DNA of 64,000 bases from Candidatus Poribacteria bacterium (GCA_965205025.1 CBDBFU010000015.1:96001-160000), one strand, 5' to 3'; shown: positions 32,111-50,768, numbered from the stretch's first letter. A program made the numbers and translations. The notes: a model not told the origin generated them from the sequence alone.

Positions 32111-32149
32111 CTTTTCCTCCAACTATCTCACTACATCAGAATTTATGAC

Positions 32150-32178
32150 ACTTTAACCCATACTATCATTTTTGTCAA
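32150..32178 (-). promoter_or_regulatory. Probable sigma70 promoter for degT-like/MBL genes
   Basis: Minus strand TTGACA-17 bp-TAAAGT. Confidence 0.45.
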
Positions 32179-32490
32179 GTTTCAAGTTATCATTACGGTG
32201 TGAAAAGTTTTTGGCATTAATTTACTTAATATAAACTGTATCACCTACACTCCGCACTTCAAATTACCGATTTTAGATATTATCTCTAAAATCCGTGTAG
32301 ACCCTACATCAAGCTCACATTATTAGGTGAATTAGAGAAAAAGACAATAGCAGAATAGAATATTAACAAACAACCCTGAATATCTATTATCCTTTGCGAA
32401 TCCTTTCCTGACGCGGGTTTATCATATAAGTATTACTATAGTTTGGATAGTTTTTAGATATAACACTCCGCTGGAGCAAGAACCACAACT

Positions 32491-32867
32491 TATACCAATT
32501 CTAATAAATAATATGCCATCGTAAAAATTTTATGGAATTGAATATTATTGGAAACTATCTTCTGTAGGAGCGACCTCCGGGTCGCGACTTGGAGATTGAT
32601 CCTGCAGAATCTCCACAATCAATGCAACAGTATATTTTAGAAATGGTATTACACTCCAGCGGAGTGCTATGTCTATAGAAAACACTATCAATACATTCTC
32701 GCACTCCAGCGGAGTGCTATGTAATACCATTTCATTACATAAATTTTATGAAATTGAATATTATTGGAAACTATCTTCTGTAGGAGCGACCTCCGGGTCG
32801 CGACATTGAGATTGCCACTGCAGAATCTCCACAATCAATGTGACATTATATCTTTGAAATGATATTA
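32491..32867. repeat. Two ~150-bp MITE-like direct copies (each with GTAGGAGCGACCTCCGGGTCGCGAC) flanking a CACTCCAGCGGAGTG doublet
   Basis: Units 32491-32651 and 32722-32867 share a long near-identical core and ATACCA../..TGGTAT ends; doublet at 32652 and 32702. Confidence 0.8.
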
Positions 32868-33196
32868 CATACTCCGATAGGATACCAATACAAAAATGCG
32901 AAAGATGTATATAATCATATTCAGCAGTCTGTTCAGTTTCCTGAACATGAATATAAAATAAGCATAAGACAAGCAATAGCAGTCGCTGCTGCCGTAACGG
33001 CATTCAAGATTTGTGATGACCCTCCAAGCGGAAATTCTACTTATAATGCGGACACAAAATAAAAAGAAAACTCTGCAATCCACGCATAAAATCAAAATAA
33101 AGAGGGCAACTTTAAACATTGAAATAACAACGTAAACCCACCCACACTTTATGCCGTTAATCGTATGTTAAACGAGACACAAAGGAGGTGAAAAGT

Positions 33197-33343
33197 ATGT
33201 CAAAATCTAAAGGTGGAAAAGGTGGAAACACCCAGTATCCGCAGAACAAGCCATCAACAACCGGTAATAAGTCTGGTGGTGGTCGTAGTAATAACACGGC
33301 TAAAGGTGGTAGTAAATCATCTGGTGGTAAAGGTAAGAAATAA
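33197..33343 (+). CDS. 48-aa Gly/Lys/Ser-rich small protein (below ORF-track cutoff)
   Basis: Perfect RBS AAGGAGGTGA, ATG 33197, MSKSKGGKGGNTQYPQNKPSTTGNKSGGGRSNNTAKGGSKSSGGKGKK*, terminator directly after. Confidence 0.75.
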   Translation: MSKSKGGKGGNTQYPQNKPSTTGNKSGGGRSNNTAKGGSKSSGGKGKK

Positions 33344-33362
33344 ACAACTCAACACAACTAAC

Positions 33363-33399
33363 AAAGGAGGCACGGACAGCATGTCCCTTGCCTCCTTTT
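33363..33399 (+). terminator. Rho-independent terminator of the small-peptide gene
   Basis: aaaggaggca-cggacagcatgtccct-tgcctcctttt. Confidence 0.7.
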
Positions 33400-34027
33400 G
33401 TTTTGATAGCCCTCGCACAGCACCTTTTTGTATTGACATAGAGAACCCACAATGCTAAAATCAAACTTATTAGAACATAAAAAACACCATAATGAGGATG
33501 ACGAATTCTCTACACAATACATCGTCAGATTCAGAGATGGTAAGGAGATAACAATGAAAATTGGAAACAAAGTTAGCACACCAGATGGCACACAAGGCTA
33601 TATTCAAAGTATTGAAACCGACCACCTTTTTGTGTCTCTCCCAACAAATGGACATCAGTCTTCCTCTCAACGTTTCTCTGAAGAACAAATAACGCTCTAC
33701 GATAACCAGAAACCGACCACCGGTGACCATACAGTGTTTGGCAGAGTGATAGAAACAAAGCAAATACATGGTGACATAGGCGGAATGATTGAAGTTACTT
33801 GCACTAAATCTGATAACACTAATACCGTATTATGGGTTGAGGATGAGTTCCACGAAATGTATAACGAACACGTCAAAACCAATATTAGTAGTTTGCGACC
33901 GCTCTATTATGCAAACTGGGTAAATTCTGAGCGTATTGATAAGTTTTTCGCTTATTATGGAATAGAAAGCACAGATAATGGCGAGTATTCACTTATGCCG
34001 ATTTCTCATAAAGATCACGCTACTAAG

Positions 34028-35486
34028 CAATACCTTCGCCAATTATCCTGTGCTTAGTTCTAACTGTGTGTGATGAATAGCACCGATAGAACTAAGGTGC
34101 TGTGTGATTTGCTCAATAACAATAGGTTCAGGTTTTTGCGGAAGTATTTTTAATGTTTCCTCTAAATACTTCATAGCTCGGTATTTTGCTTTCAAATCTA
34201 ATACGCTACACGCCGTGTTATTAGACCGAAATGTGTTTGCCATTTTCGCACTCACATTTACCATAAACAAGGATAAGTTTGCTGCATTGTTCACAGGTGT
34301 TTTTTTGACATTCATAAAATCTTCCAACCCCCAATACTGTTTTGCGTCTCTGAAGTTAAACTCTATTTGAAAACGAAGGGAGTAATAATCAATCATCTTT
34401 AGAGCACTCAGTTTTAGGTCAGAACTAAACAATAACACGTGTGATTTTTGTCCTGTCAGCAGATGCGTCTTGAGAAGACAAACAATATTGAGAGGATCCG
34501 CAAACTGCTTATGACGCAAGTGTACTTGATACACTTCGGTTCTGATGTTATCGGTTGTTTCAACAGAGACACGCCATTTGTTATCCATTTGTTGTGGATT
34601 GAAACGATCCCCATAGAGGGCGCGGCGTCCACGACCTTTATACGGTGTCGTTGGTGGATAATAGAGCGCAGCATCTGTGCGAAGTTTTGAAATGAGATGG
34701 AGACCACATTGTGATACCATTTGTAGCGCATTATTGTGTCCGAAATATCCATCAAGCACAAAATAACGGAGTTTGATACAATCTCCCATCTGTTTGAGAA
34801 ATGATTTCACCATAGTTTGAAGTTGTTTCAAAGTATTGCTGAACACAACATCCTTTTTGTTTCGATTCAGGCTCCCTTTGGGGCGACCACGCCCTCGTTT
34901 TGTTATGGCTTTCTGTGTATTCTCCTGATCTTCGATTGCAGACACATCCATATTGGCTGATGCGTTGCTACGCACGATTTGTTCCATCATCATTGGGTAA
35001 GAACACCTGTCTTTGACGCTTACTAAGGACACCGCTAAAAATGACAAACCGGAAATCGGTTTTCCATGTAATGAGGAGAAGAAGCGATCTATACCATAAG
35101 TTTTTTTCCCAGTTTTTGACACCGTGACTTCATCTGCTACAAGGATATACAAACTTTTAGGATCAAACAGATATTTTTTGAAAAAGAGCCAACACATCTT
35201 TGGCCAAGGGAGATCTGTGCTAAAGAAGCGTTGTATCGTACGATAACTCCCTCCTTTTGATGTCCAACGGGAGATATTTAACATTGTGACCTGACCTGTC
35301 ATCGCAAGCAGGGCAAATACAACTTGACATAACTGGCGGATCATAGTAGTGGATAAACATAGATTAAATACAGTAAATAATGCTATAATTTCTGGCATGG
35401 GTGTGTGTCCTTTCTAAGTTAAAATGATATTTTAAAACTTTAGGACAAACACCCTTTTTATTCAAGTGTTTTTGGCGAAGGTATTG
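34028..35486 (-). mobile_element. Complete insertion sequence, IS4 superfamily (ISPepr1/IS701-like), 1459 bp
   Basis: Perfect 15-bp IRs CAATACCTTCGCCAA (34028-34042 / 35472-35486); 6-bp target duplication ACTAAG (34022-34027, 35487-35492). Confidence 0.93.
34043..35398 (-). CDS. DDE transposase
   Basis: D in LVADE, D in VLDGYF, YREK-type motif YSLRFQIEFNFRDAKQ; AT-hook-like RGRGRPKGS. Confidence 0.92.
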   Translation of the reverse strand: MPEIIALFTVFNLCLSTTMIRQLCQVVFALLAMTGQVTMLNISRWTSKGGSYRTIQRFFSTDLPWPKMCWLFFKKYLFDPKSLYILVADEVTVSKTGKKTYGIDRFFSSLHGKPISGLSFLAVSLVSVKDRCSYPMMMEQIVRSNASANMDVSAIEDQENTQKAITKRGRGRPKGSLNRNKKDVVFSNTLKQLQTMVKSFLKQMGDCIKLRYFVLDGYFGHNNALQMVSQCGLHLISKLRTDAALYYPPTTPYKGRGRRALYGDRFNPQQMDNKWRVSVETTDNIRTEVYQVHLRHKQFADPLNIVCLLKTHLLTGQKSHVLLFSSDLKLSALKMIDYYSLRFQIEFNFRDAKQYWGLEDFMNVKKTPVNNAANLSLFMVNVSAKMANTFRSNNTACSVLDLKAKYRAMKYLEETLKILPQKPEPIVIEQITQHLSSIGAIHHTQLELSTG

Positions 35487-35719
35487 ACTAAGAAAACGTT
35501 ATTTGTTACATATAAAGATAGCCCGAATGTGAGTCATGAATTAGATGTCAGAATGGATGATGAAGGCAATATCAGTAATGTTTACGATGGCAATAGCAAA
35601 AGGTCATTCTCAAGTGTTTTTGACTTGAGAATGGCGCGTATTGTGAAAACCACGATTATATTTGAACATGAGCTCACAGATTTCTAAAGGAGATATAAAT
35701 CATTAGAAGAGAACAATAT

Positions 35720-36943
35720 ATGAGCACACAAACACACTCCGCAACCAAAAACGCTCTTGACAGAATTTCTGAACTCATCCGTAAGATAGTAGAGAAATCA
35801 GGTAATGGCAACTGTATTTATCGTGGTGAACCTGAACACTATGATAAAGTATCCTCTGCTCTCTATCGCCCTTCTCCATTAAAATTTGATTCAGGGGAAT
35901 ATGATTTAAAACGTTTAAATAGGTCGAATCTGGAAAATGCTCGTAACCATATCCATGATCAAAAAAAAGGGAACTTTGAACTTTTAACGGAGCTGCAGCA
36001 CTATGGCGATGAAACCAACCTCATAGACTTCACAACTGACTTCCACATAGCCCTATTCTTTGCATGCAACGGTTTTCATGATAAAGATGGCAGGGTTATT
36101 GTGTTGCCAAGAACGAAAGATATTGATAAAAAATACAGAGTAAAGCAACCTTTGGAACCTGTCAATCGCGTTACGGCACAAAAAAGTATATTCACGCAGC
36201 CTCATAAAGGATATATTGAACCTAACGACTTCGACACTATTACTGTTTCTGCCAATCTAAAACAGTGGATACTCATTTATCTGCGGAATTTCCAAGATAT
36301 ATCTACACAAAGCATCTTCAACGATCTACATGGCTTCATTCGAAATAAAGAATTGCGTCGCTCAAACGAAGCAAATCTTCCACTTGTTTTGGCAGAAATA
36401 AAATTGGAACACATTGCGGACAATGACCCGACTGCCGAAGATGAAGAAGAAGAAAAAGATGCATGGCGCGATTTGATCGCAGGTTATACAAGAAGGTTAG
36501 AGTATTCACCTTATGAGGTTAGATGTTATGTGGAACAGGGTCAATACTACTTATATCTCGAAGAATACGATTGTACAATTGAAGTCTGTAGCAAAGCAAT
36601 ATTACTACAACCTGATCATTATAAGGCATACCTTTTTCGCAGTGCTGCTTTTTTCTACAAAAAGCAGTACACGGACACTATAGAAGATACCGATTGTTTG
36701 ATACAAAACAACCCACAGGATTCCATGCCATACATCATTAGAGGTATTGCATTGTTACACCTGCAAGATTGGGAAAAAGCGAAATTGGACTTTGAGGCTG
36801 GCAAAGAGATAGATAAAAAGATGGGTAAATTTCTTACCTTCTTATTTCGTCAAGACTCTCAAAGCGTTTCAGATTTTGAGCAGGAGTATAACGTTAAACT
36901 ACCCGCAGACATTGCCGAAATGCTAACGCCACCGCAGGCATAG
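35720..36943 (+). CDS. FRG domain protein with C-terminal TPR repeats
   Basis: IYRGE, LQHYGDETNLIDFTTDFHIALFFAC, RVTAQKSIF, then about 3 TPR-like repeats. Confidence 0.85.
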   Translation: MSTQTHSATKNALDRISELIRKIVEKSGNGNCIYRGEPEHYDKVSSALYRPSPLKFDSGEYDLKRLNRSNLENARNHIHDQKKGNFELLTELQHYGDETNLIDFTTDFHIALFFACNGFHDKDGRVIVLPRTKDIDKKYRVKQPLEPVNRVTAQKSIFTQPHKGYIEPNDFDTITVSANLKQWILIYLRNFQDISTQSIFNDLHGFIRNKELRRSNEANLPLVLAEIKLEHIADNDPTAEDEEEEKDAWRDLIAGYTRRLEYSPYEVRCYVEQGQYYLYLEEYDCTIEVCSKAILLQPDHYKAYLFRSAAFFYKKQYTDTIEDTDCLIQNNPQDSMPYIIRGIALLHLQDWEKAKLDFEAGKEIDKKMGKFLTFLFRQDSQSVSDFEQEYNVKLPADIAEMLTPPQA

Positions 36944-37129
36944 TCAATAATTTCTATATATATATATGATATGATAAAAGTTGAAATAGAACTTGAGTCG
37001 TGATCAAATACTATGAACCAAAATCAACACGTCAAACCAGAGGAAATAAGCGATGGCAAGGCTCACACTCCTAAAATCCATTGTGTCAATACTCGGACAC
37101 AAAAACACACACACAAAAGGAGAACTATC

Positions 37130-37816
37130 ATGTTAAAAAGCATATTCAAGATTTCAGTCACTTTTGCAGTATTGCTGCTTTCAGGAATGCTGGTAAACTC
37201 ACACTCTGGCAGAACCGACAATACGGCGGACACCATGACCGAATCAACGGCGGCTACCACTACAAAGGAAGAAAAGCCAAAGGCACAAAACGGAAGGTTT
37301 AAAGTCCACGTAAACGTATCATGCAGCGACAATACCACAAAGTCTATGATAGAAAGTCACATCAAGCGAGAATTACGCAGTTTGGGAGACGTAGACATTG
37401 TTGACGAGAAACACAATGGATTCAGACTTATTCTTCTTGCTATTCCTCACACATCTAAATCAACTGAAAAAAAAACTGGGCAAACTTCAATTGCAATCAT
37501 GGAATTGTATAAAGAAGGTGACTTGCATGCATTTATATCGTCAGCTATATCTCTATATGCTACAACTATTGAACCGAACTATCGGAACCTACCTGACAAA
37601 GAATTCCTAAAAAGGAAAACTAAAAGGTTTGAAATTGCTAAAGAATGGTCTGAATCTTTGGGAGATGTTTACAACAGACCTGGCTTAGAGTTAATTGTTA
37701 ACATACCAAACAACAACCTACCAGCTACTTGTAAAGAAATTGTGGCTGAATTTGATGTTAAACATTTAGAACCCTTCAGAGAAATAACTATGAAAATATT
37801 AGAGAACAAAAACTAA
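37130..37816 (+). CDS. Secreted hypothetical protein with cryptic (out-of-frame) YHYH-type motif
   Basis: RBS AAGGAG and ATG 37130; signal peptide, HSGRTD; YGGHHDRINGGYHY lies in another frame at 37222-37263. Confidence 0.65.
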   Translation: MLKSIFKISVTFAVLLLSGMLVNSHSGRTDNTADTMTESTAATTTKEEKPKAQNGRFKVHVNVSCSDNTTKSMIESHIKRELRSLGDVDIVDEKHNGFRLILLAIPHTSKSTEKKTGQTSIAIMELYKEGDLHAFISSAISLYATTIEPNYRNLPDKEFLKRKTKRFEIAKEWSESLGDVYNRPGLELIVNIPNNNLPATCKEIVAEFDVKHLEPFREITMKILENKN

Positions 37817-37876
37817 TATGTACGTCATAAACATTGAAGACGAAACTTTTACTGCGATAAAAGCCACATAGCCATA

Positions 37877-38539
37877 ATGAGAACAAGTGCTATGAACGAA
37901 ATCAGAGATGGACACTACACATTAGGGAACGCATATCTCAGAGAAGGACAATATGATGAGGCAGTAACACACTTTGAGCAGGCTATATCCCTTGATTCAG
38001 ATTTTATTGAAGCCTATCATGCCCTCGCCCTTGCCTACTTACAGCAGCAACGACTCCAAGACGCCAAAGACGCTGCAAGAGAAGCACTACGGATTGATAT
38101 AACCTACCAACCTATACTCTCCTTTCTACAAGCCATTGAACCGAGTATGCCCGCAACCCCACAGGTGGCTGTCCTTCCGACGGAACAGCCCGATGGGATC
38201 GAGAAACCCGTTGAAAAAGAAGATACGCCAAAGCAGCCTAACTCGACGACCCTTCCTGAAAAAGAGAAAGCACCCCCCAAAGAAAATGATATTGATATTG
38301 ATATTGACACAGAGTTGGAACGCGGTATCGTATTCCTCGCAAATAAGCAATATCCACAAGCCGAAACAGCATTCAAGAAAGTGCTGAAAGCATCACCGAA
38401 CCATGCCATCGCTCATTACAATCTCGCACAAAGCTACATGGAAACTGGAGTGTTGATGGATACCAAGATCCAAGTAGACAAGGCGTTACGGCTCAATCCA
38501 TCATACCCAGACAGAACTCTTACTGTATTTATAGGATAA
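37877..38539 (+). CDS. TPR repeat protein with Pro-rich linker (possibly C-terminally truncated)
   Basis: HYTLGNAY..EAV..F..AI, AYHALALAY, AHYNLAQSY repeats. Confidence 0.8.
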   Translation: MRTSAMNEIRDGHYTLGNAYLREGQYDEAVTHFEQAISLDSDFIEAYHALALAYLQQQRLQDAKDAAREALRIDITYQPILSFLQAIEPSMPATPQVAVLPTEQPDGIEKPVEKEDTPKQPNSTTLPEKEKAPPKENDIDIDIDTELERGIVFLANKQYPQAETAFKKVLKASPNHAIAHYNLAQSYMETGVLMDTKIQVDKALRLNPSYPDRTLTVFIG

Positions 38540-38545
38540 ACGAAC

Positions 38546-39148
38546 ATGAAACATCAATCTAACAACGTAATCATCTATATCACGACATGCGTGGTGTTGA
38601 TAAGTTTGCTCATGGCATGCGGTGAAGATAACGATTCCCTAACAATAACGCCAAACTATCTGCCAATTGAAGTAGGAAATACTTGGATATTCGTTTTGCC
38701 TGACGATCCGCATGACACAAGGGACATTTCAATCACTGGGACAACATTGTTGGCTAACGGCAAAACTGTATTCTCCGTCTCAACAACAGATGATTATGGA
38801 CATTATGATAGCAGTTATCTGTCACGCGCTGCCAATGATCTCTTATTATTCCATAAAACATTAAAAGACCTACAAGGTGAATTGATTTTTAGTCCACCGA
38901 TAAAAGTTGGAACAACGTGGCAAGGACGAGATGGTCAGGCAGAAGTCGTAGCACAAGAAAATGTCAACACACCTGCCGGTATATTCCAAAATTGCTTTCG
39001 CATCAATGTGCAAGTTCATCAATCTTATGAAGATGACTACGCAATCTGGCTTGCGAAAAATGTTGGTCCCGTAAAAATTGTAACTATTAGTAAGAGTGAT
39101 GGTGAAATTGAATCGAACATTGTTCTCAAACATTTCTTCACCAAGTAA
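38546..39148 (+). CDS. Hypothetical lipoprotein
   Basis: Lipobox LMAC; YLPIEVGNTW, VNTPAGIFQNC, WLAKNVGPVK motifs common to beta-rich exported proteins. Confidence 0.7.
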   Translation: MKHQSNNVIIYITTCVVLISLLMACGEDNDSLTITPNYLPIEVGNTWIFVLPDDPHDTRDISITGTTLLANGKTVFSVSTTDDYGHYDSSYLSRAANDLLLFHKTLKDLQGELIFSPPIKVGTTWQGRDGQAEVVAQENVNTPAGIFQNCFRINVQVHQSYEDDYAIWLAKNVGPVKIVTISKSDGEIESNIVLKHFFTK

Positions 39149-39253
39149 ACTATTGAAAAAGATGAGGGAATCACAAAATTATAGACATTCTAATTCGGAT
39201 TTAAGAATCAAAAAAGCAACTCTAAAATAAGTAACGCTCACAAGGAACACCTT

Positions 39254-40912
39254 ATGAAATATAGACAGAAATTATCCGCTATTGTAGTTTTACTCCTCTT
39301 TTTCACAATAAGCACCGCATTTGCCCAAACAACGCTACCAGCTGAAGATATTGCTGAAAAAGCATTAGCAGCAACAGTATACTTGGAAATGAAAGATAAC
39401 AATGGCAAAACTTTGGGCATCGGCAGCGGGTTTTTTGTAAAACCCAACCTAATTGCAACTAACTACCACGTGATTGAAGGTGCTGCAAAAGGCACCGCAA
39501 AGTTAGTTGGCAAATACACCACATACAATATTGAAGGCGTTACAGGAACAGACAAAACAAATGACCTCGCACTTCTAAAGGTCACTTCTTACGGTATCAA
39601 GCCACTTTATCTTGGTAACAGTGACATAGTAAAGATTGGTGAGACGGTTTACGTTGCTGGCAATCCCAAAGGACTGGAAGGCACATTCTCGGATGGTATT
39701 ATTAGTAGTCGTCGCGATAAATACACAAAAGAACGACTACAGATGACCGCACCGATTTCACCAGGGAGTAACGGTGGTCCCGTTGTAAACAATAAAGGTG
39801 AAGTCATTGGAGTATCTTTTATAACACTACAAGGTCTACAGAATCTGAATTTAATAATTCCTTCAAATTACCTCAAGAAACTGCTAAATCAACCATACAC
39901 ATCAAAAAACTTAGATCAAGGTAGCGACTTCATCTCCGCAGAAACCTATTTTAATTGGGGTAATACAAAATTTGTTTTAAGAGACTATGAGAATGCTATT
40001 ACAGACTATACTGAGGGAATTCGTTTAAAATCCATTGATGCCAATTTTTACTGCAATCGCGGCATTGCAAAGGGTAAACTTGGACAATATAATTCTGCTA
40101 TCATAGATTTTAATATAGCAACGCAATTAAAACCAGATTTTTCTGATGCCTTCTATATGCGCGGACTTGTTAATGTTAAATTAACACAATATTCTGCTGC
40201 TGTTGAAGATTTTGATATGGCTATAGGTTTAAAACCAGATATGGCACAATATTATATTGATCGAGGGGCTGCAAAGCATCATCTTGGACAGTACTTAGCT
40301 GCTATTGCTGATAATGACACTGCAATTAGATTAAAACCTGATAATTCATTCGCATTTTACAATCGAGGGGCTGCAAAGATACAACTCAAGCAATATGACG
40401 CAGCTATCGCAGATTTTAACACAGCAATTAGATTAAAAAGCGACTTTGCTGAGGCATTCTACAATCGTGGAATTGCGAAAATAGAGTTAGAACTATATAC
40501 CGCAGCTATCGCAGATTTTGATACAACAATCCGACTAAAACCTGATTTTGCCGATGCATACTACAATCGGGGAATTACGAAGGGCAAGTTAGGACAGCAC
40601 GCTGATGCTATTGCAGATTTTGATACAACAATCCGACTAAAACCTGATTTTGCCGATGCATACTACAATCGGGGACTTGCGAAGGGCAAGTTAGGACAAT
40701 ACACTGCTGCGATTTCGGATTTTGACATCGCTATTCGGCTCAATCCTGATAATGCCGATGCATACTACGATCGGGGACTTGCGAAGGCTGGGTTAGGTCG
40801 AACATCGGCAGCGAAGCAAGACATCCGCACTGCTTTACGACTTGCGATAAAAGCAGGGGATGTAGAACTGAAAACTGACGCAGAGGAAGCACTGCGTATT
40901 CTCAATAAGTGA
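39254..40912 (+). CDS. Secreted trypsin-like (S1C/Trypsin_2) protease domain + 9 TPRs; catalytic Ser replaced by Asn
   Basis: GSGFFV, TNYHV, DLALL, PGSNGGP instead of PGSSGGP; nine 34-aa repeats. Confidence 0.88.
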   Translation: MKYRQKLSAIVVLLLFFTISTAFAQTTLPAEDIAEKALAATVYLEMKDNNGKTLGIGSGFFVKPNLIATNYHVIEGAAKGTAKLVGKYTTYNIEGVTGTDKTNDLALLKVTSYGIKPLYLGNSDIVKIGETVYVAGNPKGLEGTFSDGIISSRRDKYTKERLQMTAPISPGSNGGPVVNNKGEVIGVSFITLQGLQNLNLIIPSNYLKKLLNQPYTSKNLDQGSDFISAETYFNWGNTKFVLRDYENAITDYTEGIRLKSIDANFYCNRGIAKGKLGQYNSAIIDFNIATQLKPDFSDAFYMRGLVNVKLTQYSAAVEDFDMAIGLKPDMAQYYIDRGAAKHHLGQYLAAIADNDTAIRLKPDNSFAFYNRGAAKIQLKQYDAAIADFNTAIRLKSDFAEAFYNRGIAKIELELYTAAIADFDTTIRLKPDFADAYYNRGITKGKLGQHADAIADFDTTIRLKPDFADAYYNRGLAKGKLGQYTAAISDFDIAIRLNPDNADAYYDRGLAKAGLGRTSAAKQDIRTALRLAIKAGDVELKTDAEEALRILNK

Positions 40913-41017
40913 GTAGGAATACTTGATAAGCACTCTCTCAATCACATTATATCGTTTATTTTAATTCAAAACTGATATTCTGAATAATCTATTAACAAGA
41001 GTTAAGGAGATTTCATA

Positions 41018-41644: not shown

Positions 41645-41903
41645 TACTTACTATAGTTTGGACAGTTTTTTGAGTCGTGATGCTTTTCATTTTCATTTTA
41701 AAATCTCTTGCTAAAACACATTTCGCCCCTCTGTGGCTTGGAGTGGGATTGGAAATAAACTATACACCTTCCATCCCTTTGGGACTGCCACTTTGATGTC
41801 TGACATATTTTCGTTGAGTTAAAACACTGATGGTATTATCTATCATTGGCGTGCACAATAGAGAACAACACTGAGTAGTGCCAAACAACATAAGGAGACA
41901 ATT

Positions 41904-42356
41904 ATGAAAATTATAAACTTACCCTTTGATGGATTTACCAATAAAGGTATTAGCCTTTACGAGGAAGGCCGCTATGGCGAAGCAATTACCATTTTTAGTG
42001 AGGTAATTCGCAAAGACAATGAAGCGGTTGTAGCATACTACTATCGAGGGTTGTCAAAATATGATCTTAGTCAATATGGAGAAGCGATTGCTGACTATGA
42101 TAGAGTCATTGATCTCACCACCAATGATTATGACGAAGTGTATGAGAAGCGCGGTCTTGCAAGATTCGCACTTAAACAATACAAGTTGGCCATTCGTGAT
42201 TTTGATGAGGCAATTCATATCAATCCACATAACGCTGATGCATTTAAGCTTAGAGGTACTGCAAAGATAAAATCTGGTGATAGAATCTCAGGAAACGAAG
42301 ACATTGAAAAGGCGTGTCAACTTCACTCTCGCTGGGAAGTTAAAGTTGCTAATTAA
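41904..42356 (+). CDS. Small TPR repeat protein
   Basis: About 4 TPRs (AYYYRG, VYEKRG, AFKLRG); RBS AAGGAG. Confidence 0.85.
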   Translation: MKIINLPFDGFTNKGISLYEEGRYGEAITIFSEVIRKDNEAVVAYYYRGLSKYDLSQYGEAIADYDRVIDLTTNDYDEVYEKRGLARFALKQYKLAIRDFDEAIHINPHNADAFKLRGTAKIKSGDRISGNEDIEKACQLHSRWEVKVAN

Positions 42357-42477
42357 CACTTGTCGTGTATGAGTATCTAAGCACAACTCATAAGTGGATA
42401 CGTCCTGACACACCTAATAGACCTATAGATCCAGATCCATTAGGGATGTATTGAGAAAATTAGACGAGGAAGTATCA

Positions 42478-43857
42478 ATGAAATATAGAAACACATTATT
42501 TTGGAAGTCATACCCCCAAATCGCTATTGTAGTTTTACTCCTCTTTTCCACAATAAGCACAGCACCTGCCCAAACAACGTTACCAGCTGAAGATATTGCT
42601 GAAAAAGCATTAGCAGCAACAGTATATTTGGAAATGAAGGATAACACTGGCAAAACCTTGGGTATCGGCAGCGGGTTCTTTGTGAAACCGAATCTAATTG
42701 CTACCAACTACCACGTGATTGAAGGTGCTGCAAAAGGCACTGCAAAGTTAGTTGGCAAATACACCACATACAAGATTGAAGGCGTTACAGGAACGGACAA
42801 AACAAATGACCTCGCACTTCTAAAGGTCACTACTTACGGGATCAAGCCACTTTCTCTTGGCAACAGTGATATAGTAAAGATTGGTTCTACGGTTTACGTC
42901 GCTGGCAATCCGAAAGGACTGGAAGGCACGTTCTCGGATGGTATTATTAGCAGCCGTCGCGATAAATACATAAAAGAACGCCTGCAGATGACTGCACCGA
43001 TTTCACCGGGGAGCAGTGGCGGTCCCGTGCTAAACAAAAAAGGTGAAGTTATTGGAGTTTCCGTTGCAGTTCATCGTGCTTTGGATGCACAAAATCTCAA
43101 TTTTGCTATTCCATCAAAATATCTCAAGAAACTGCTGGTGCACTCAAAGATAGCAAAACCCTTATCGCAAGTAAAACAATCTATATCTGCTGATACTTAC
43201 TTTCAATGGGGCAATGCAAAGTACGATTTAGGCGATTATGCGGGTGCCATTGCAGACTATACAATGGCTATCATACTCAAACCTGATGATGCTTTGGCTT
43301 ATAACAATCGTGGAAATGCGAGGGAAAAGTCAGGACAATACTTTGCAGCTATAGCAGATTTTGACACGGCTATACGACTAAAACCTGATGATGCTTTGGC
43401 TTATAACAATCGTGGAATTGCGAAGGCTAACTTGGAACAATACTTTGCAGCTATAGCAGATTTTGACATCGCTATACGACTAAAACCTGATCTTACCGAG
43501 GCATACTACAATCGGGGAATTGCGAAGTTTCACTTGGAACAATACATTGCTGCCATTGCGAACTATAATAAAGCCATCCGACTAAAACCTGATTATGTCA
43601 GTGCATACATCAATCGGGGAATTGCGAAGGGAGAGTTAGGACAATACTTTGCTGCTATCGCTGATTTTGACACTGCTATCCGACTAAAACCTGATGATGC
43701 CTTTGCATACTACAGACGGGGAATTGCAAAAGAAGATTTAGGTCGGACACTGGAAGCGAAGCAAGATTTCCGAACTGCTATACAACTTGCGATAAAAGCG
43801 GGTGATGTAACTAATAAAACTTACGCCGAGAATGCACTGCGTATTCTCAATCAGTGA
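42478..43857 (+). CDS. Secreted trypsin-like serine protease + 6 TPRs
   Basis: Intact triad TNYHV / DLALL / PGSSGGP; six TPRs; paralogue of 39254-40912. Confidence 0.9.
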   Translation: MKYRNTLFWKSYPQIAIVVLLLFSTISTAPAQTTLPAEDIAEKALAATVYLEMKDNTGKTLGIGSGFFVKPNLIATNYHVIEGAAKGTAKLVGKYTTYKIEGVTGTDKTNDLALLKVTTYGIKPLSLGNSDIVKIGSTVYVAGNPKGLEGTFSDGIISSRRDKYIKERLQMTAPISPGSSGGPVLNKKGEVIGVSVAVHRALDAQNLNFAIPSKYLKKLLVHSKIAKPLSQVKQSISADTYFQWGNAKYDLGDYAGAIADYTMAIILKPDDALAYNNRGNAREKSGQYFAAIADFDTAIRLKPDDALAYNNRGIAKANLEQYFAAIADFDIAIRLKPDLTEAYYNRGIAKFHLEQYIAAIANYNKAIRLKPDYVSAYINRGIAKGELGQYFAAIADFDTAIRLKPDDAFAYYRRGIAKEDLGRTLEAKQDFRTAIQLAIKAGDVTNKTYAENALRILNQ

Positions 43858-44055
43858 GTAAGAACGCTTAATAAGCACTCTCTCAATCGCGTTGTATCCG
43901 GTAGAGAGTTTCACACAAAAAATCTGTGATGTGGAATGAAACAATTTACCCAGATCTAAACGTATGGAGTATATAATATACCGAAAAAATTTGCCAATTT
44001 TTACCGAAACGCTGTATCATGCCCATAGCGAATCCCCTGGAGGCACACGATTCAA

Positions 44056-44259
44056 ATGTCGTCAGAACGTAAAATATTAATGATAGGTGTATTATTGATC
44101 GTTGCCGCGATTATCACCTGTATCTTTATCTCCGATTGGTTTTTTAACCGCAATCTCCTTACAGAAACATTGGTCGGTATCCTGATAGGAACGCCGCTCG
44201 GTTGGCTTGGCGCTTATGTAGCGTTTTATACTGTTGAAAGCAACGGAAAAAAAGACTAA
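44056..44259 (+). CDS. Small two-TM membrane protein
   Basis: 67 aa, GGAGG upstream, two hydrophobic helices. Confidence 0.55.
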   Translation: MSSERKILMIGVLLIVAAIITCIFISDWFFNRNLLTETLVGILIGTPLGWLGAYVAFYTVESNGKKD

Positions 44260-44353
44260 CCGCTGACAGCTAAATACCCTACCGAAGTGTTGATCTGTAT
44301 CAGATTCTTAATCAAATAGAACATTTCAAATTGCTACAGAAAAGGAGGATACT

Positions 44354-44586
44354 ATGTCAATTTTGGAATTGCTTAATGAAATAGAAAAAAGAACGAATCC
44401 TTAAAAATACATATTGACCCTATCAGATCATTATTAACATCAGATTCAGAACTTTCTTTCATTATTCAAGAGATTATGGAACTATATGAACTAATGAGGC
44501 ATGAGAAACCATCAAGTGAAAATTATAAGAAATATGAGGTACAATTAAAATCATTCTTTATACATATCAATAAACTGCGAAAATAG
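44354..44586 (+). pseudogene. Small helical protein gene with a frameshift in an A6 run
   Basis: Strong RBS AAGGAGG, ATG 44354; adding one A at 44385-44390 gives a 77-aa ORF (MSILELLNEIEKKNESLKIHIDPIRSLL..NKLRK*). Confidence 0.5.
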
Positions 44587-44639
44587 AATTGAAAGATGGA
44601 AATTTTATCTTTGTGATTCGGTTAAAGTATCGCGCCCAT

Positions 44640-44735
44640 ACTGCTATACAGCTTGCGATAAAAGCAGGTGATGTAACTACCAAAACTAACGCTGAGGAAG
44701 TACTGCGTATTCTCAATGAGTGAGTAGGAACGCTT
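44640..44735 (+). pseudogene. Orphan 3' end of a third trypsin-TPR paralogue
   Basis: Encodes TAIQLAIKAGDVTTKTNAEEVLRILNE* plus the conserved downstream gagtaggaacgctt, matching ends at ~40829-40925 and ~43774-43870. Confidence 0.8.
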
Positions 44736-44767
44736 TGTAGGAACGCTTTGTAGGAACGCTTTGTAGG
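44724..44767. repeat. 13-bp tandem repeat x3.4
   Basis: (gtaggaacgcttt)x3 + gtagg. Confidence 0.9.
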
Positions 44768-45031
44768 TCAGTAAAATTGGCATTTTGCTTTCGACTTTGG
44801 TATAATTGGTTGATGATCATATTTTCGTATTAAATGAAGTATCGGATTAAATTCAACAAGGTGTAGAAAAAAACGTCGCTGAATTATCAGCAACGGGTAA
44901 ACGGTGAAGTTAAGATTCACCGCAGAATACACGGCCTTATTTGAACGAGTGATAGTTTATTTTACCGTATTATTGATGAATTTCCAACTTTGTCGGATAG
45001 GTTTGGTTGCGGATATTTTAAAGGAGTTCTG

Positions 45032-45385
45032 ATGAAGAACGAATGTAAGTTTTACGTGTCAGGGATTACGAATGCTGAGATCGACGAATTGACGTCCAAG
45101 TTAGATCAAGATTTGGAAAATGCGTCGTGGGACGAGATTGTAGGCTTTATTTCTGAGCAATATCCACAGGCAAAGTTGATCAGGGTATCTAACATTGCTG
45201 ATAAAATAAGGAAGGATCTTTTGGAGCAAAATCTACATGATAAAAAGAAAATGGATGAATCACTCGTGAATGCGATACTAAGCCACATAGATGAAACTGT
45301 CCAGAATGTAAATTTGCAAGTTAGCGTGCCAGAAGAATATAAAAATCTGGTAGGCAATAAGTATCTATTTCTTATTGATGATTAG
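45032..45385 (+). CDS. Hypothetical protein
   Basis: RBS AAGGAG before ATG 45032; acidic helical sequence. Confidence 0.55.
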   Translation: MKNECKFYVSGITNAEIDELTSKLDQDLENASWDEIVGFISEQYPQAKLIRVSNIADKIRKDLLEQNLHDKKKMDESLVNAILSHIDETVQNVNLQVSVPEEYKNLVGNKYLFLIDD

Positions 45386-45582
45386 TGCTTGGTGCAGAAC
45401 GTTGTTGGTAGGGGATTCGACCTGTCTCGCTTGAGGCAGTCCCTATTGAACCGAGTCGAATTGGGAACAGTGCGAAAATTGAACAGTGTGATGCTATAAA
45501 CCTGCTCAGAGCGGACAATATTCTTCATGGTTAAATGGCTTTACGAAAATACATTGACTGATATTTATAAAGGAGAAAACCA

Positions 45583-45930
45583 ATGTCAGATGATAAGATG
45601 ACACGTGAAGAGGCTTTTGATATATTAGATAAACATGCTGAAAGTATGGAAACTAAAAGACAACAATATGCTGAGGTTATGGGTGATAATCTCTCCTATC
45701 ATGGAGAGTCCATTCTAAAAGAGATGGAAAATAATGGTGAATCTTGGCAAGATGTTGATTGCTATAAAATTGGTCATGGTAAATATGAAAATGTTCCATT
45801 TCATATTTGGACGACTAACTTTATATATTTCCCAATAAGGATTGCAGCCGGGATCCCCGGTATGATATATCATATAAAAAGTATACCTCGCAATCCCAGA
45901 AAAGATGTAATTCCGAAATGGTTGAACTAA
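45583..45930 (+). CDS. Hypothetical protein (phage-like)
   Basis: RBS AAGGAG; PFHIWTTNFIYFP..SIPRNP motif, reminiscent of small phage proteins. Confidence 0.6.
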   Translation: MSDDKMTREEAFDILDKHAESMETKRQQYAEVMGDNLSYHGESILKEMENNGESWQDVDCYKIGHGKYENVPFHIWTTNFIYFPIRIAAGIPGMIYHIKSIPRNPRKDVIPKWLN

Positions 45931-45943
45931 GGAGGATTCAACT

Positions 45944-46408
45944 TTGAATCAGAAAATAGTTAGAGAAGTTAATTTATATACCAGAGAATTTAACTATATT
46001 TATGAATCTGACTCACCGCCAGAAAGATTTCAATACTTCCAAAAGTGTTTAGAATATGGAGTAAACCTACTTAATAAAGGTGAATTACCTATAATATGTA
46101 GCATAAAATGTGATCATGTCTCAGCTCTATCATCAGAAAGAGGTCATTGGATGACATATTCAGTTGTTATACCAGAAAACGGTATATCAAAAAAGGGTTA
46201 TGTTAAAAATATTTGGATAGCACAACGTCATGAAAAAGTAGAATATGATTCTAAAGAGCACATTTTCATAGATCCATTTCTTCATAATTCGAATAGCTGG
46301 ATACACGGTTTTATTACATCAGGTGATAATCTAACAAGACTATTAGCAAGCAAAAGTATAAAGTCAAGTTATATATGCGATGAATTTCTTTACAGAATTG
46401 TTGAATAA
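45944..46408 (+). CDS. Hypothetical protein
   Basis: RBS AAGGAGG before TTG start; 154 aa. Confidence 0.55.
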   Translation: MNQKIVREVNLYTREFNYIYESDSPPERFQYFQKCLEYGVNLLNKGELPIICSIKCDHVSALSSERGHWMTYSVVIPENGISKKGYVKNIWIAQRHEKVEYDSKEHIFIDPFLHNSNSWIHGFITSGDNLTRLLASKSIKSSYICDEFLYRIVE

Positions 46409-46442
46409 GAATTTTTAACCATAATCAGTGGAAAGGAAATAT

Positions 46443-46766
46443 ATGCCAAATGATAATATTGAATACCATATAAAAGTAAGTCTTTTGCTGAATATTCTAA
46501 ATGATGGTGAAGAACATAATAGAAGTGACGTAATCAAAAGCGTTGTCAATATATTTGCGAATCTATTTTATAAAGATACAGTTATTGAAATACCAGACTT
46601 AAATAATCCTATAACAGAGAGACTCGAAAGATGTTGCAGCACAGTTCTGAGCGAATTGAAGACTATTGGATACGTAGAAAATGTGCGACCTGGATACTGG
46701 AAAATAACCTCTAATGGAATAGACTACAGAAACCAAATAAAAGAACTTCTAAAGACACCTTCATAG
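46443..46766 (+). CDS. Stand-alone Mrr N-terminal-like winged-helix protein
   Basis: LLNILNDGEEH..DV..V...F...ELKTIGYVENVRPGYWKITSNG matches the Mrr_N pattern (L..L.DG....L...G.......G...IT..G). Confidence 0.65.
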   Translation: MPNDNIEYHIKVSLLLNILNDGEEHNRSDVIKSVVNIFANLFYKDTVIEIPDLNNPITERLERCCSTVLSELKTIGYVENVRPGYWKITSNGIDYRNQIKELLKTPS

Positions 46767-46793
46767 ATCTTTGAACATTTATCTTAGGTGTTG

Positions 46794-47150
46794 CTATTTA
46801 CGCCGTTCGTATTCATTTTCGCTCAAACGCCACCCAATTCGTTTTTCTGTTACCGTAACTACCGGTTGGGCACGACCATTTTCCTGAAGTTTATTTAGGA
46901 TACCCTCTATTAAAAATCCTGCCCAGTTATTGCTATCTTCTATCCCTGGCAATTCCATCCGTTTTTTGATTGCGTTTATATCCATATACTTCTCATCCGG
47001 TGATGGGAGTATATCTAACACAGCTTCCTCTAATAAATGTATAGCTGCTTTTGTAGCAAGTTTTGGCTCGTCAGGATTTTCACCAAGATAGTTGATTTCG
47101 AGTATATATACCTCGTTCTCATTTTTTACATTAGAATATCGTTTTGACAT
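46794..47150 (-). CDS. Hypothetical winged-helix-like protein
   Basis: RBS AAGGAG before ATG 47150; LEEAVLDIL..I..RMEL..ILNKLQENGRA..WRL. Confidence 0.55.
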   Translation of the reverse strand: MSKRYSNVKNENEVYILEINYLGENPDEPKLATKAAIHLLEEAVLDILPSPDEKYMDINAIKKRMELPGIEDSNNWAGFLIEGILNKLQENGRAQPVVTVTEKRIGWRLSENEYERRK

Positions 47151-47329
47151 TTCTATATCTCCTTTATAGATTTGCGGGGTTTTTCGGATCCCCGAAGGAT
47201 TCTGTAACCCAGTATCGCGAAGTTGGTAGGAAAGAACGCTGATTCCCAACATAGAAATAGGCGCGCTGCCAAGCACGCCTATAATCCATCAATATGAAAA
47301 GTTTTATTTCTTCTATTCTTTTTAAACTG

Positions 47330-47602
47330 TCACGATTTCAAGTATTTATCAACCTCGTTTTTATGACCGACCCAATACCATAAAATTGTACCGTTAATTT
47401 CTTTTCCTAAAGCTCTGTAGTTTCGGTCAATGCGTATAGACCATCGTCCTGCCACCTTTTTGAATCGTAATGATGGGGGCAGAACAATTGTCATTAAATA
47501 TTCAAATTGTTTTAGAACTTTAGATTGTACATTGCTTGGAAGTGCGTTGACTAAATTATGAAAATTGTTGTCCTGGACGTGTTGAAAATCAAGATTGTTC
47601 AT
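47330..47602 (-). CDS. RelE/ParE-like type II toxin
   Basis: LPSNVQ..PSLRFKKV..WSIRIDRNYRALG..WYWVGH..D. Confidence 0.75.
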   Translation of the reverse strand: MNNLDFQHVQDNNFHNLVNALPSNVQSKVLKQFEYLMTIVLPPSLRFKKVAGRWSIRIDRNYRALGKEINGTILWYWVGHKNEVDKYLKS

Positions 47603-47910
47603 GATAGAGGGACAAGTTCAGTGTATTTCCCCTCATCGTAGTTTTGCTGCGCTTGAGCTTCAAGTTTTGCGATTGTTTCGGACGTGGCAGCTTCAGTCAA
47701 TAAACATTCCCATGCTTCTTCTTCCCGTATCAACTCCTGATTGACTTCGCCCGGCAATTTTTGTTCAACTTCTTCAATAGTATCACCGAAGCATTTAAGT
47801 TCGGGTATGTCTGGAACTAAGCCAACCCAACCAGCACCATTTCTTTCAATATGTGCAGTAAACGTCTCATCAAACAATTTATTGTGGATTAAGTACGTTT
47901 TTGCAGCCAT
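47599..47910 (-). CDS. Antitoxin with HicB-like N-terminal domain
   Basis: WVGLVPDIPELKCFGDTIEEV (HicB-like) plus acidic C-terminal helix; ATGA 4-bp overlap with the toxin. Confidence 0.7.
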   Translation of the reverse strand: MAAKTYLIHNKLFDETFTAHIERNGAGWVGLVPDIPELKCFGDTIEEVEQKLPGEVNQELIREEEAWECLLTEAATSETIAKLEAQAQQNYDEGKYTELVPLS

Positions 47911-48015
47911 TGTATGCTCCTTATAGAATCATATCCTTATTGGACAGTCACTTTTCTTTTGTTTCGCCGCAACGTTTTGTTTGGTTTCGTAACGTTTCGG
48001 TTCGTCACAACAACT

Positions 48016-48070
48016 ATTATACAAAATTTTCAATAGAATTTTCAATAGAATTTTCAATAGAATTTTCAAT
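48016..48070 (-). repeat. 12-bp tandem repeat x3.8 overlapping the probable TA promoter
   Basis: (aattttcaatag)n at 48025-48070; minus strand TTGAAA-18 bp-TATAAT (48016-48021). Confidence 0.75.
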
Positions 48071-48328
48071 TGTAAGGATTTCTGTCAGGTGCCGGTGGGG
48101 GTTCAGTAAACTTCTCACCTCGTGCCTCCCCTCTTCCATCCTTCCATCAACAAACCCTCTTCTCCGTGTAATCCGCTATTCAGACATATTAACTGTAAAC
48201 TGTAAAAAATATTGAAGAAAACCAAACCATAGTACAACTAAAGACATAAAATAATAAAATCACAATCAAAAAGTAAATAACAAAAGTAAATTTATTATAG
48301 AATAGTATTACATAAAACAACATTTTAC

Positions 48329-48357
48329 TTGACACATGTGTTTTATTATGTTACTAT
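48329..48357 (+). promoter_or_regulatory. Sigma70-type promoter pointing into the non-coding right arm of the island
   Basis: TTGACA-17 bp-TACTAT with extended TG. Confidence 0.45.
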
Positions 48358-48975
48358 ATATATTACAGAAAATGAATAGTATGCAATGTTGTTATGAAAC
48401 TAATGCAACTGTTGTGAAAGTTTCATAACAGTTATGAAAAGGAAATCACAATCTGATACACCTACAAACCTATACCAGAACAGGGTTCAGAACACTTCAA
48501 ACAAGAACAGAGTATGAATTTTTAAAAAAAATTAAAAAACTAACATATTTTGAGATATTTCAACAAACCCTTTCTGGGACTGACTTTAGAACAGTTTTAA
48601 AACATGCTGTTTAAAAATTGTGTTGTGAAAATAAAACTATGGTGTATCTCATAAATATGAATCGTTATTCACATCTACAAAAAGAAGATAGAGCAATAAA
48701 TAGGAAGAAAAGAAATGATAATCCAACATTTACATAAAAAGACAATCAGACATAGAAAAAATAGCGAATCGCTTCAGTGCTCAGGAAATCCAGAAAAACC
48801 AGAAAATGACACAAAACTCAAAATTCTTAAAATTTTAAGAAATTACCATGAACCCAGTCTATCACAGGGATTAGAGCAATATTACAAAGTTACACCATGT
48901 AACGAAAAGTGTAACTTTTTCATTTTACTCACTTTCAATTTACTAAAGAGTATCTCATTAATACAGTTCCTCTTC

Positions 48976-48998
48976 GTAGGGACGGGGTCTCCCCGTCC
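48976..48998. repeat. GTAG-tagged REP-like palindrome
   Basis: gtag-ggacgggg-tct-ccccgtcc. Confidence 0.7.
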
Positions 48999-49502
48999 GT
49001 ATTTTCGATATATTATACAGGACAAGAATAATGAAGCCTCCAAATATATGATTTATGGGATATGTTCCAATATATTTTCACAATGGACGGATAAGATATT
49101 TCACATTCAAACAATCCTAAATCAATGGATAAAAAGTAAAGAAAATGACACAAAAATCGTCACAGTGACAAATTCTTGTGACATTAAAAAAATGGCTTTA
49201 AACCCAGTGTAGTACTGACGGGAGAGAGGTTTTACCAATGTCACACCGTGTGACAAAAAGTGTAACTTTTTTCAACATATAGACAATAAAAATATTACTA
49301 TTGTGAATAACTAAATACAGAATTTACGCGAGAATTACCTTTGGTTCAATATTATACATCCAAGAAAAAAGAACTTTATGATTCCGTGATATTCATGCCA
49401 TAAACTTTACACACCTTATCAGGACGACGTGGGTATCAGGTAAAAAACATTAATGACATAATTACCGTTCATAATTTTGAGTTCTATAGTACAACATAAC
49501 TC

Positions 49503-49530
49503 TTGACACTCAACATTAACATGTTATGAT
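49503..49530 (+). promoter_or_regulatory. Sigma70-type promoter for the dehydrogenase gene
   Basis: TTGACA-16 bp-TATGAT with extended TG; strong RBS AAGGAGGT downstream. Confidence 0.6.
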
Positions 49531-50580: not shown

Positions 50581-50591
50581 GTAATAGATAT

Positions 50592-50742: not shown

Positions 50743-50768
50743 TAACTATCATCACCAAACCAAAATAA

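Follow-up and report, generated by a model that had tools for sequence, protein, structure and literature searches.

The degT-dehydrogenase locus

The window analysed here is a stretch of 64,000 nucleotides (one strand) from a Candidatus Poribacteria genome (G000; 5,661,198 bp), in which an accessory-gene island of 17.2 kb lies between a degT gene and a gene for a zinc-type dehydrogenase. The features on which its reading depends are listed below, with positions counted from the first letter of the window; the MITE and duplication assignments are those argued for in the last section.

18626..19669: second, complete member of the repeat family, 1,044 bp, with a TonB-dependent receptor gene on one side and a divergent gene on the other
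32150..32178, minus strand: degT sigma-70-type promoter, 10/12 matches (-35 TTGACA at 32178-32173, 17-nt spacer, -10 TAAAGT ending at 32150)
32187..32196: putative target-site duplication, left copy, degenerate (TTATCATTAC), beginning 8 nt upstream of the degT -35 box
32197..32243, plus strand: putative MITE R-end stub (21-bp terminal inverted repeat 32197-32217 plus 26 nt, i.e., R-end positions 1-47)
32244..48185: DNA within the proposed split MITE, ~15.9 kb
32244-32871: nested short repeats within the proposed split MITE
34024..35487, minus strand: IS701-like IS with a 451-aa DDE_5 transposase (34043-35398), its ends unrelated to the 21-mer
48186..49415, minus strand: putative MITE body and L end, with homology to the R-end region (L terminal inverted repeat 49395-49415)
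49416..49425: putative target-site duplication, right copy, degenerate (TTATCAGGAC)
49503..49530, plus strand: promoter of the zinc-type dehydrogenase gene (TTGACA, 16 nt, TATGAT with TG)

The left end of the island (32197-32217, GGTGTGAAAAGTTTTTGGCAT) is identical at 19/21 positions to the reverse complement of 49395-49415 (GGTGTGTAAAGTTTATGGCAT), and the flanks 32187-32196 and 49416-49425 agree at 8/10; both figures had been given in the initial annotation and were confirmed by direct sequence comparison. The interior comprises a 201-aa ORF cut by the IS, FRG-TPR, TPR and DUF3108-like genes, two trypsin-TPR paralogues, a Mrr_N protein, a ParE-like pair and unnamed ORFs, the incoming genes amounting to ~14 kb. 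Neither conjugation genes nor a cognate transposase were found among the interior genes, no GC anomaly was seen in the interior, and there were no further TIR-like sites at PWM >=10 within 32218-49394. The IS701-like IS has its own, different ends (CAATACCTTCGCCAA), as had been pointed out, and six other near-identical copies are present in the genome (7 in all). Because these copies are 99.7-100% identical, the IS is a recent secondary insertion, so growth of the interior in place is shown at least for this IS.

Homology with the relatives G041, G004 and G018 ends at 32183-32190 and restarts at 49490-49493. The proposed coincidence of the island's ends with the switch in gene content thus holds on the left, where homology breaks 7-14 nt from the end, and less closely on the right, where the breakpoint is 75-78 nt away and the 75 nt between the end and the conserved dehydrogenase promoter (49416-49490) have no match in the three genomes. 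The gap between the two genes measures ~240 bp in G041 and 2.28 kb, including a TolB-like gene, in G004. An empty site with one copy of TTATCA..AC had been predicted for relatives, but none is recognisable in the cargo-free gap of G041 (the intergenic DNA is not alignable), and in none of the relatives compared was an intact small element present at this site without the insert. No full-length match to the 17.2-kb unit was found in the 39 other genomes of the genus, where matches to the island were confined to the IS701-like IS, trypsin-TPR paralogues and short pieces. Logan contigs from four public runs break at repeats (none among the contigs listed bridges 32244 to 48185); contigs from two runs of two other studies, ~96.5% identical, cover 31000-32234, through the left end.

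A repeat family with ISKra4-group ends

The 21-mer at the island's ends is not private to the island; an abundant repeat family has it as its terminus. Matches with at most 4 mismatches number 179 in the 5.66-Mb genome, 123 of these ends are unpaired, and 148 have C as their terminal base, or G when read on the opposite strand. All repeat classes have a terminal inverted repeat of at least 21 bp in common; the variant of the 21-mer changes together with the repeat class found inward of it, and conservation ends exactly at the outer edge. Inverted pairs less than 2.5 kb apart number 28, none with a transposase gene between its ends, and clear target duplications flank three small elements (9 bp at C10 30062 and C16 40254; 8 bp, exact, at C28 197977). 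Most small inverted pairs have no duplications, and several L-type copies have no recognisable far end. Of the inverted pairs with short duplications for which the initial annotation had proposed to scan, the genome shows the 28 pairs and the three elements, beside the 123 unpaired ends; pairs enclosing a transposase, also among the proposed checks, were found in congeners.

Family elements of 1.0-1.3 kb exceed the classical MITE size, and their sole long frame is stop-free, lacks a start and has no family match. A decayed transposase was rejected as the origin of this frame in the 1.1-kb elements (no Pfam match, best E 0.099); its homologues are unnamed short proteins only, one of them labelled Poribacteria. 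The window and four full elements had no match in Rfam. A 454-aa multi-copy IS of the IS4 family was rejected as cognate partner, its true end being YATAGGCGTCAATTTAG and not the 21-mer; the 20 nt preceding this end are a long target duplication, and the 21-mer, like REP-like hairpins, is therefore just a site into which this IS inserts.

Large bacterial MITEs and mobile insertion cassettes are non-autonomous, with IS-type ends, a target duplication, many copies and sometimes passenger DNA. The family in G000 likewise lacks a transposase and has IS-type ends, target duplication and many copies, its non-coding derivatives (1.0-1.3 kb and shorter) far outnumbering transposase genes in this genome; it differs in its derivation from the ISKra4 group and in its promoter-directed targeting.

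An exact scan for the 21-mer gave at least 105 loci, all in MAG records that are labelled Poribacteria or unlabelled. In congeners, exact inverted pairs of the 21-mer 1,451-1,457 bp apart enclose an ORF of 439 aa that scores 239.1 bits (L041) and 242.6 bits (L052) against NF033572 (ISKra4; cut-off 205 bits), compared with 71-82 bits, under its cut-off, for the ISLre2 model. Five autonomous copies (L041, L052, L057, L061, L117) are flanked by exact 9-bp duplications, and an ISKra4 transposase match above the cut-off is present in 16 of the 40 genus genomes. The island ends thus belong to an IS family of the ISKra4 group (prokaryotic Mutator-like, DDE) that is intact in other Poribacteria, and not to an undescribed element family, as the initial annotation had considered. 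A transposase between such ends is a property of the family and not of the island copy: no intact cognate transposase was found in the island or elsewhere in the G000 assembly (only fragments by tblastn; two weak matches in an HMM search, best E 1.9e-14), in agreement with the earlier description of the unit as non-autonomous.

Terminal inverted repeats of the ISKra4 group (p-MULT 4) are 18-39 bp long with a conserved terminal cytosine, and direct repeats of 8 or 9 bp arise at insertion (Guerillot et al. 2014, PMC3942029). The Poribacteria family shares with this group the transposase (above the NF033572 cut-off in the autonomous copies of congeners), near-perfect inverted repeats with terminal C and 9-bp duplications; it differs in its host and in that the window holds non-coding derivatives only. 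By the same standards, the island has ends that are 19/21 complementary and a degenerate repeat (8/10 or 7/9). The word "MITE" occurs 0 times in the main text of PMC3942029, and no description of these elements was found in the literature on ISKra4 miniature inverted repeats or on Poribacteria IS and transposases.

Insertion upstream of sigma-70 promoters

Members of the family insert 16-18 nt upstream of the -35 boxes of sigma-70 promoters. A promoter score of at least 9/12 was reached at these offsets by 73 of the 179 ends, compared with 1-4 of 179 at five control offsets, and the pattern was repeated on ends from other genomes (38/134 vs 0-4 at controls). Among autonomous full-length copies, a promoter at 17-18 nt was present in 3 of ~8, a small sample. 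About half of the ends are without a promoter, which is expected for two-ended elements. For the ISKra4 group, promoter-directed insertion is already published (Guerillot et al. 2014, PMC3942029), namely 13-17 bp upstream of sigmaA-type promoters and in either orientation when the inverted repeats are near-perfect; for TnGBS, the same paper gives 15-17 bp upstream of sigmaA promoters. The Poribacteria family has in common with the ISKra4 group both the insertion in either orientation and the fixed short distance upstream of sigma-70/sigmaA promoters.

At the island, the degT promoter is the target beside which the element landed. The left end lies 18 nt from its -35 box (17 nt if 32196 is the terminal base), and the right end lies 87 nt from the -35 box of the dehydrogenase promoter. 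The degT promoter is kept in G041, G004 and G018, which lack this element here, and also in G021, G012 and G024; in G018, a different family member is found exactly 17 nt upstream of the dehydrogenase promoter. That the element itself carries the promoter was rejected, the flank not being conserved and the same promoters being present in relatives without the element. In the degT-dehydrogenase gap and at two loci of C32, homology with relatives breaks at or within ~10 nt of family ends.

Origin of the island

The two ends of the island resemble different portions of the family element. The left stub is identical at 45 of 47 positions to the C28 197977 copy, and firm homology of the right 1.2 kb to the R-end region begins at 48202 (R position ~79), with R positions 48-78 absent or too diverged; the right part also holds, at 48329-48357, an internal promoter-like site and, at 48715-49212, a frame without stops. 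The 47 nt on the left and the 1.2 kb on the right do not overlap and complement each other as parts of a single element; this argument is somewhat weakened by other L-type copies, whose R-end homology likewise gives out around the same internal module. The two inner junctions share a short direct repeat (ATATAAACTGTAT / ATATTAACTGTAA), which is no more than suggestive. Since the stub corresponds to R 1-47 and the right part resumes at R ~79, we read the 17.2-kb island as an ordinary non-autonomous MITE of ~1.28 kb, derived from an ISKra4-group IS and later split by ~15.9 kb, and assign to this reading a probability of roughly 0.7.

Both ends match the terminus of the autonomous IS at 20/22 (for the stub, that of L041). 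In the strict geometry of the family the duplication is 7/9, in a register that requires one end without its terminal base (the C10 copy has the same), and the outer bases of both ends are off-consensus (position 32196 has C in place of the expected G, and 49416 has T in place of C). Because the flanks resemble a target-site duplication and the parts are complementary halves of one element, both ends very probably derive from one transposition event.

The inverted pairing of the ends, taken alone, is no more than chance, because the genome contains 179 matches to the motif and six adjacent +/- end pairs spaced 5.8-23 kb. Two unrelated solo remnants of separate elements might thus happen to point towards one another from either side of a variable intergenic region, with a coincidental 8/10 flank, a reading with which the 123 unpaired ends, the small pairs without duplications, the L-type copies without a recognisable far end and the junction with relatives 75 nt outside the right end all agree. 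However, the flank similarity is unusual: a match of 8/10 or better has a frequency of 6e-4 among 15,880 random end pairings (4e-3 with offsets 0-2 permitted), and the five other large +/- pairs in the genome reach only 3-6/10. Moreover, the duplication, at 8 nt from the -35 box, is in the place expected from the family geometry, and the stub and the right part (R ~79 to the L end) are complementary with matching end types. The initial annotation would have given up its reading if the motif were so frequent and unpaired that the pairing is expected by chance, which is so for the pairing taken alone; the flank match nevertheless makes coincidence unlikely.

The notion of a cargo-accumulating unit mobilised in trans, also put forward initially, fared less well. 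A Pack-MULE-like, non-autonomous transposon that inserted upstream of degT with its whole 17.2 kb would account for one R-type and one L-type end in inverted position, the 8/10 flanks and a left end at the family's preferred promoter distance, and transposases of this superfamily do move tens of kb, e.g., in TnGBS ICEs (PMC3942029). We regard it as improbable, given that the ends are complementary parts of an element of normal 1.28-kb size, as a split element predicts, that no second copy was found in 39 congeners, that at least part of the interior (the IS701-like IS) arrived recently in place, that both terminal bases depart from the family consensus and that the genome has no intact cognate transposase. 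TnGBS, with a transposase of a related superfamily, shows that such chemistry can move large cargo; it differs from the island in having its own transposase, one insertion orientation and a conjugation module as cargo, the island possessing neither transposase nor conjugation genes. Plant Pack-MULEs, named in the discussion of PMC3942029, are non-autonomous Mutator-like elements with host gene fragments. The island shares with them Mutator-type ends around host-derived DNA, the absence of a transposase and a position on the 5' side of a gene, whereas its interior holds whole genes and an IS, its ends are two halves of one small element, and neither capture during transposition nor movement as a unit finds support in it.

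That the 21-mer is instead a host regulatory site, such as an activator box centred near -62 and common to many promoters, would fit its fixed position upstream of -35 boxes at 73/179 ends and can be dismissed, since the 21-mer variant tracks the inner repeat class up to a sharp outer edge, relatives have the same promoters without it, it bounds transposase-encoding elements with 9-bp duplications, and the promoter is missing at about half of the ends, as two-ended elements predict.

For the split MITE, the course of events may have been as follows. In the lineage leading to this genome, the element would have inserted into the short stretch between degT and the dehydrogenase gene, with a transposase supplied in trans and since lost or decayed. 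The ~15.9 kb would have entered later, ~47 nt from the R end, through one or several events, which would include the demonstrably recent IS701-like insertion and the nested short repeats, and the outcome would be an accessory-gene patch at a site that is also variable in the closest relatives. A recurrent integration point inside the element is not supported, an R-end stub being absent from the other candidate (C18 29269-35104).

There is a slim chance that the split element is still a functional two-ended substrate, so that an ISKra4-group transposase from a co-resident Poribacteria lineage could move the 17.2 kb (~16 genes) as a bacterial "Pack-MULE" beside promoters; swarms of such promoter-seeking MITEs would then both seed and carry the accessory-gene patches of sponge symbionts. 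For annotation, the locus illustrates that in repeat-rich genomes neat inverted ends around an "island" can be the halves of one small element, and that a genome-wide survey of the family is needed before a cargo transposon is called. The published promoter targeting of ISKra4/TnGBS-type Mutator-like transposases is extended here to a further phylum, the Poribacteria, which are sponge symbionts, and to non-coding derivatives, about four in ten of whose ends are found 16-18 nt upstream of genuine gene promoters. With ends near promoters and homology breaking at the ends, these elements may thus influence the order of genes in these uncultured symbionts and perhaps also their expression.

Terminal repeats and their family

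The island (32187-49425), lying between degT and a zinc-type dehydrogenase gene, has at its left end GGTGTGAAAAGTTTTTGGCAT (32197-32217), which matches GGTGTGTAAAGTTTATGGCAT, the right end (49395-49415) read as its reverse complement, at 19 of 21 positions, and the 10-mers immediately outside, TTATCATTAC and TTATCAGGAC, agree at 8 of 10; both repeats read as the initial annotation gave them. Four matches to the 21-mer (up to three mismatches) occur in the window against 0.01 expected, the remaining two bounding a 1,044-bp element (18626-19669). In the genome that holds the window (G000; 5,661,198 bp in 33 contigs, the window being C15:96001-160000), the scan suggested with that annotation returned 179 matches with up to four mismatches (17 exact; 28, 46, 50 and 38 with one, two, three and four mismatches), and a weight matrix gave 229 sites scoring at least 10. 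Inverted pairs do exist: adjacent sites on opposite strands and no more than 25 kb apart form 34 pairs, of which 28, each shorter than 2.5 kb, are genuine small elements, but 123 of the 179 ends have no partner, and none of the small pairs contains a transposase. The other six pairs, including the island, span 5.8-23 kb. Because the family is so abundant, an inverted pair at 17 kb is not significant by itself.

Full members of the family measure 1,115-1,265 bp. DNA inward of the motif falls into at least 17 repeat classes, which the motif variant (…GGCAT or …GTCAC) tracks, while outward conservation ends, except at a single base, a C in 148 of the 179 cases. The elements of 1.1-1.3 kb share an internal sigma-70-like site (TTGACA, 17 nt, TACTAT; 48329-48357 in the island) directed to the L end, one of the two end types of the MITE. 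Downstream of it (48715-49212) lies a frame of 165-224 codons, stop-free in several copies and lacking a start codon, for which no family match was found (sole homologues: unnamed short proteins, one labelled Poribacteria).

G000 has four multi-copy insertion sequences (families IS4, IS701, IS630 and IS701-like), and their ends differ from the 21-mer. The IS4-family element, present in 11 copies and encoding a 454-aa transposase, and the short derivatives of it (e.g., C4 71932-73391, C7 146232-146401, C7 225706-225908 and C14 207604-208190) terminate in YATAGGCGTCAATTTAG, a motif with 145 occurrences. They lie between direct repeats of about 19-20 bp, which is unusually long for a target duplication, and their common targets are a REP-like hairpin, GGTGCGGTTAGGAAACCGCACC, and the island-end 21-mer.

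When one genome per prokaryote species was scanned with the exact 21-mer, at least 105 loci were found, the labelled ones all in Poribacteria MAGs. At several of these, exact inverted 21-mers 1,451-1,457 bp apart enclose a 439-aa ORF that has no Pfam match and scores 239.1 and 242.6 bits against NCBIfam NF033572 (ISKra4 family transposase; cut-off 205 bits); in five autonomous copies the terminal G…C is bordered by exact 9-bp duplications. The 22-nt terminus of this IS matches each island end at 20 of 22 positions (the right end at 30 of 35), so the suspected undescribed element family is in fact a known one. Transposase matches above the cut-off occur in 16 of 40 genus genomes, with about 30 copies in some. 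Since congeners bear transposase-encoding copies with the same ends and G000 retains only fragments (by tblastn, plus two weak HMM matches), the G000 elements are orphaned large MITEs that derive from an ISKra4-group IS and are non-autonomous.

The island as a probable split element

We consider each island end to be one half of a common ISKra4-derived MITE that was split afterwards by about 15.9 kb (probability roughly 0.7). The features that bear on this reading are the following.

Features at the island ends (window coordinates)
32178-32150, minus strand: degT promoter
32197-32243: R-end positions 1-47 (R being the other end type), 45/47 identical to the copy on contig C28
32231-32243 and 48186-48198: short direct repeat, ATATAAACTGTAT and ATATTAACTGTAA
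48202: R-end homology picks up at position ~79 and continues for 1.2 kb to the L end

Most tellingly, judged from these alignments, the two ends complement each other as parts of a single element, and combined they give about 1.28 kb, which matches full members in size (1,115-1,265 bp). The short direct repeat, an arrangement found once in the genome, may mark the entry point of the insert. The left end starts 18 nt from the degT -35 box, with the putative duplication in the 9-10 nt adjoining it, a geometry shared by C10 and C28, small elements with clear duplications; between the right end and the dehydrogenase -35 box there are 87 nt, which is what a single insertion predicts for its distal end. 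For the flank match the empirical probability is 6e-4 (4e-3 allowing offsets), and the other five large pairs match at just 3-6 positions. The ends are thus very probably a true pair produced by one transposition event, and their pairing by chance, which the many unpaired copies would allow, is unlikely. Still less probable is a cargo transposon travelling as a unit with these ends as its termini: the initial annotation was right that they are paired, but they are better explained as the halves of a split MITE.

The interior encodes FRG-TPR, TPR and DUF3108-like proteins, two trypsin-TPR paralogues, an Mrr_N protein, a ParE-like pair and several unnamed ORFs, together with nested short repeats and a 201-aa ORF interrupted by the IS701-like IS (7 copies, 99.7-100% identical). 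Its GC content is no different from that of the flanks, several parts have paralogues elsewhere in G000, and neither a recombinase nor an Rfam RNA match was found in it. The secreted trypsin-like protease-TPR paralogues (39254-40912, 42451-43857) have near-identical N-terminal halves, and their family has multiple copies throughout the genus, with DNA identities of 75-84% in many genomes. The ParE-like toxin ORF overlaps a 103-aa ORF upstream (47330-47910), with copies at C13 222894-223658 (88% identity) and in two congeners (88-89%). A 12-nt unit, aattttcaatag, stands in tandem at 48020-48070, immediately inside the insert's right part. A 160-bp repeat has two copies here (32486-32651, 32723-32871); it is distinct from the ~160-bp repeat directly downstream of the dehydrogenase gene (50586-50751; ~70 G000 copies, 89-99% identity).

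No full-length island match was found in the 39 other genus genomes, where matches are limited to the IS, the trypsin-TPR family and short pieces. degT adjoins the dehydrogenase gene only in G000 and the congeners G004 and G041; eight complete congeners have 0.2-2 Mb between the two genes. The gap between homology limits is 239 nt in G041 and 2,277 nt in G004 (including a TolB-like gene), and the contigs of G018 break within it. The site is therefore variable in each close relative, and the predicted empty site with a single TTATCA..AC copy was recognised in none of them.

Insertion beside host promoters

The outer flank shows no sequence conservation, yet TTGACA at offset 17 and TATAAT at offset 40 are directed away from the element. 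Promoter scores of at least 9/12 at offsets 16-18 occur at 73 of 179 ends in G000, versus 1-4 at five control offsets, and 65 of these 73 face an outward ORF of at least 80 aa starting within 400 nt. Among the 28 small pairs, a promoter stands at both ends in 4, at one end in 12 and at neither in 12. Ends from other genomes behave alike (38 of 134, versus 0-4 at controls), as do some autonomous copies with intact duplications. The promoters beside family ends are host promoters. That of degT is kept without an element in G041, G004 and G018. A family end lies exactly 17 nt upstream of the dehydrogenase promoter in G018 only. At a second locus, an identical junction in G000 and G004 is occupied by different family members. 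Family ends also lie 19, 17 and 23 nt upstream of the orthologous degT -35 box in G021 (L015 1410-1430), G012 (L009 1405-1425) and G024 (L017 214-234), so either this promoter is targeted repeatedly or an old insertion persists at it.

Between two divergent promoters, G000 has a 1,248-bp member (L024; G000:C32:91750-92997), G004 a 130-bp one-ended member plus a REP-like hairpin (L036), and G018 unrelated DNA (L037); in all three, about 17 nt separate each -35 box from the upstream limit of conserved sequence.

Excerpts of Guerillot et al. (2014, PMC3942029) describe insertion 13-17 bp upstream of sigmaA promoters for TnGBS/ISLre2 elements and 13 ISs of the ISKra4 group, both insertion orientations for ISKra4-group members with near-perfect IRs, IRs of 18-39 bp that terminate in C, and repeats of 8 or 9 bp; contact with the RNA polymerase initiation complex is proposed there. 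All four family features in these excerpts are present in the elements studied here. Promoter targeting and the family are thus already known; the novelty lies in the host phylum and in the large number of non-coding derivatives.
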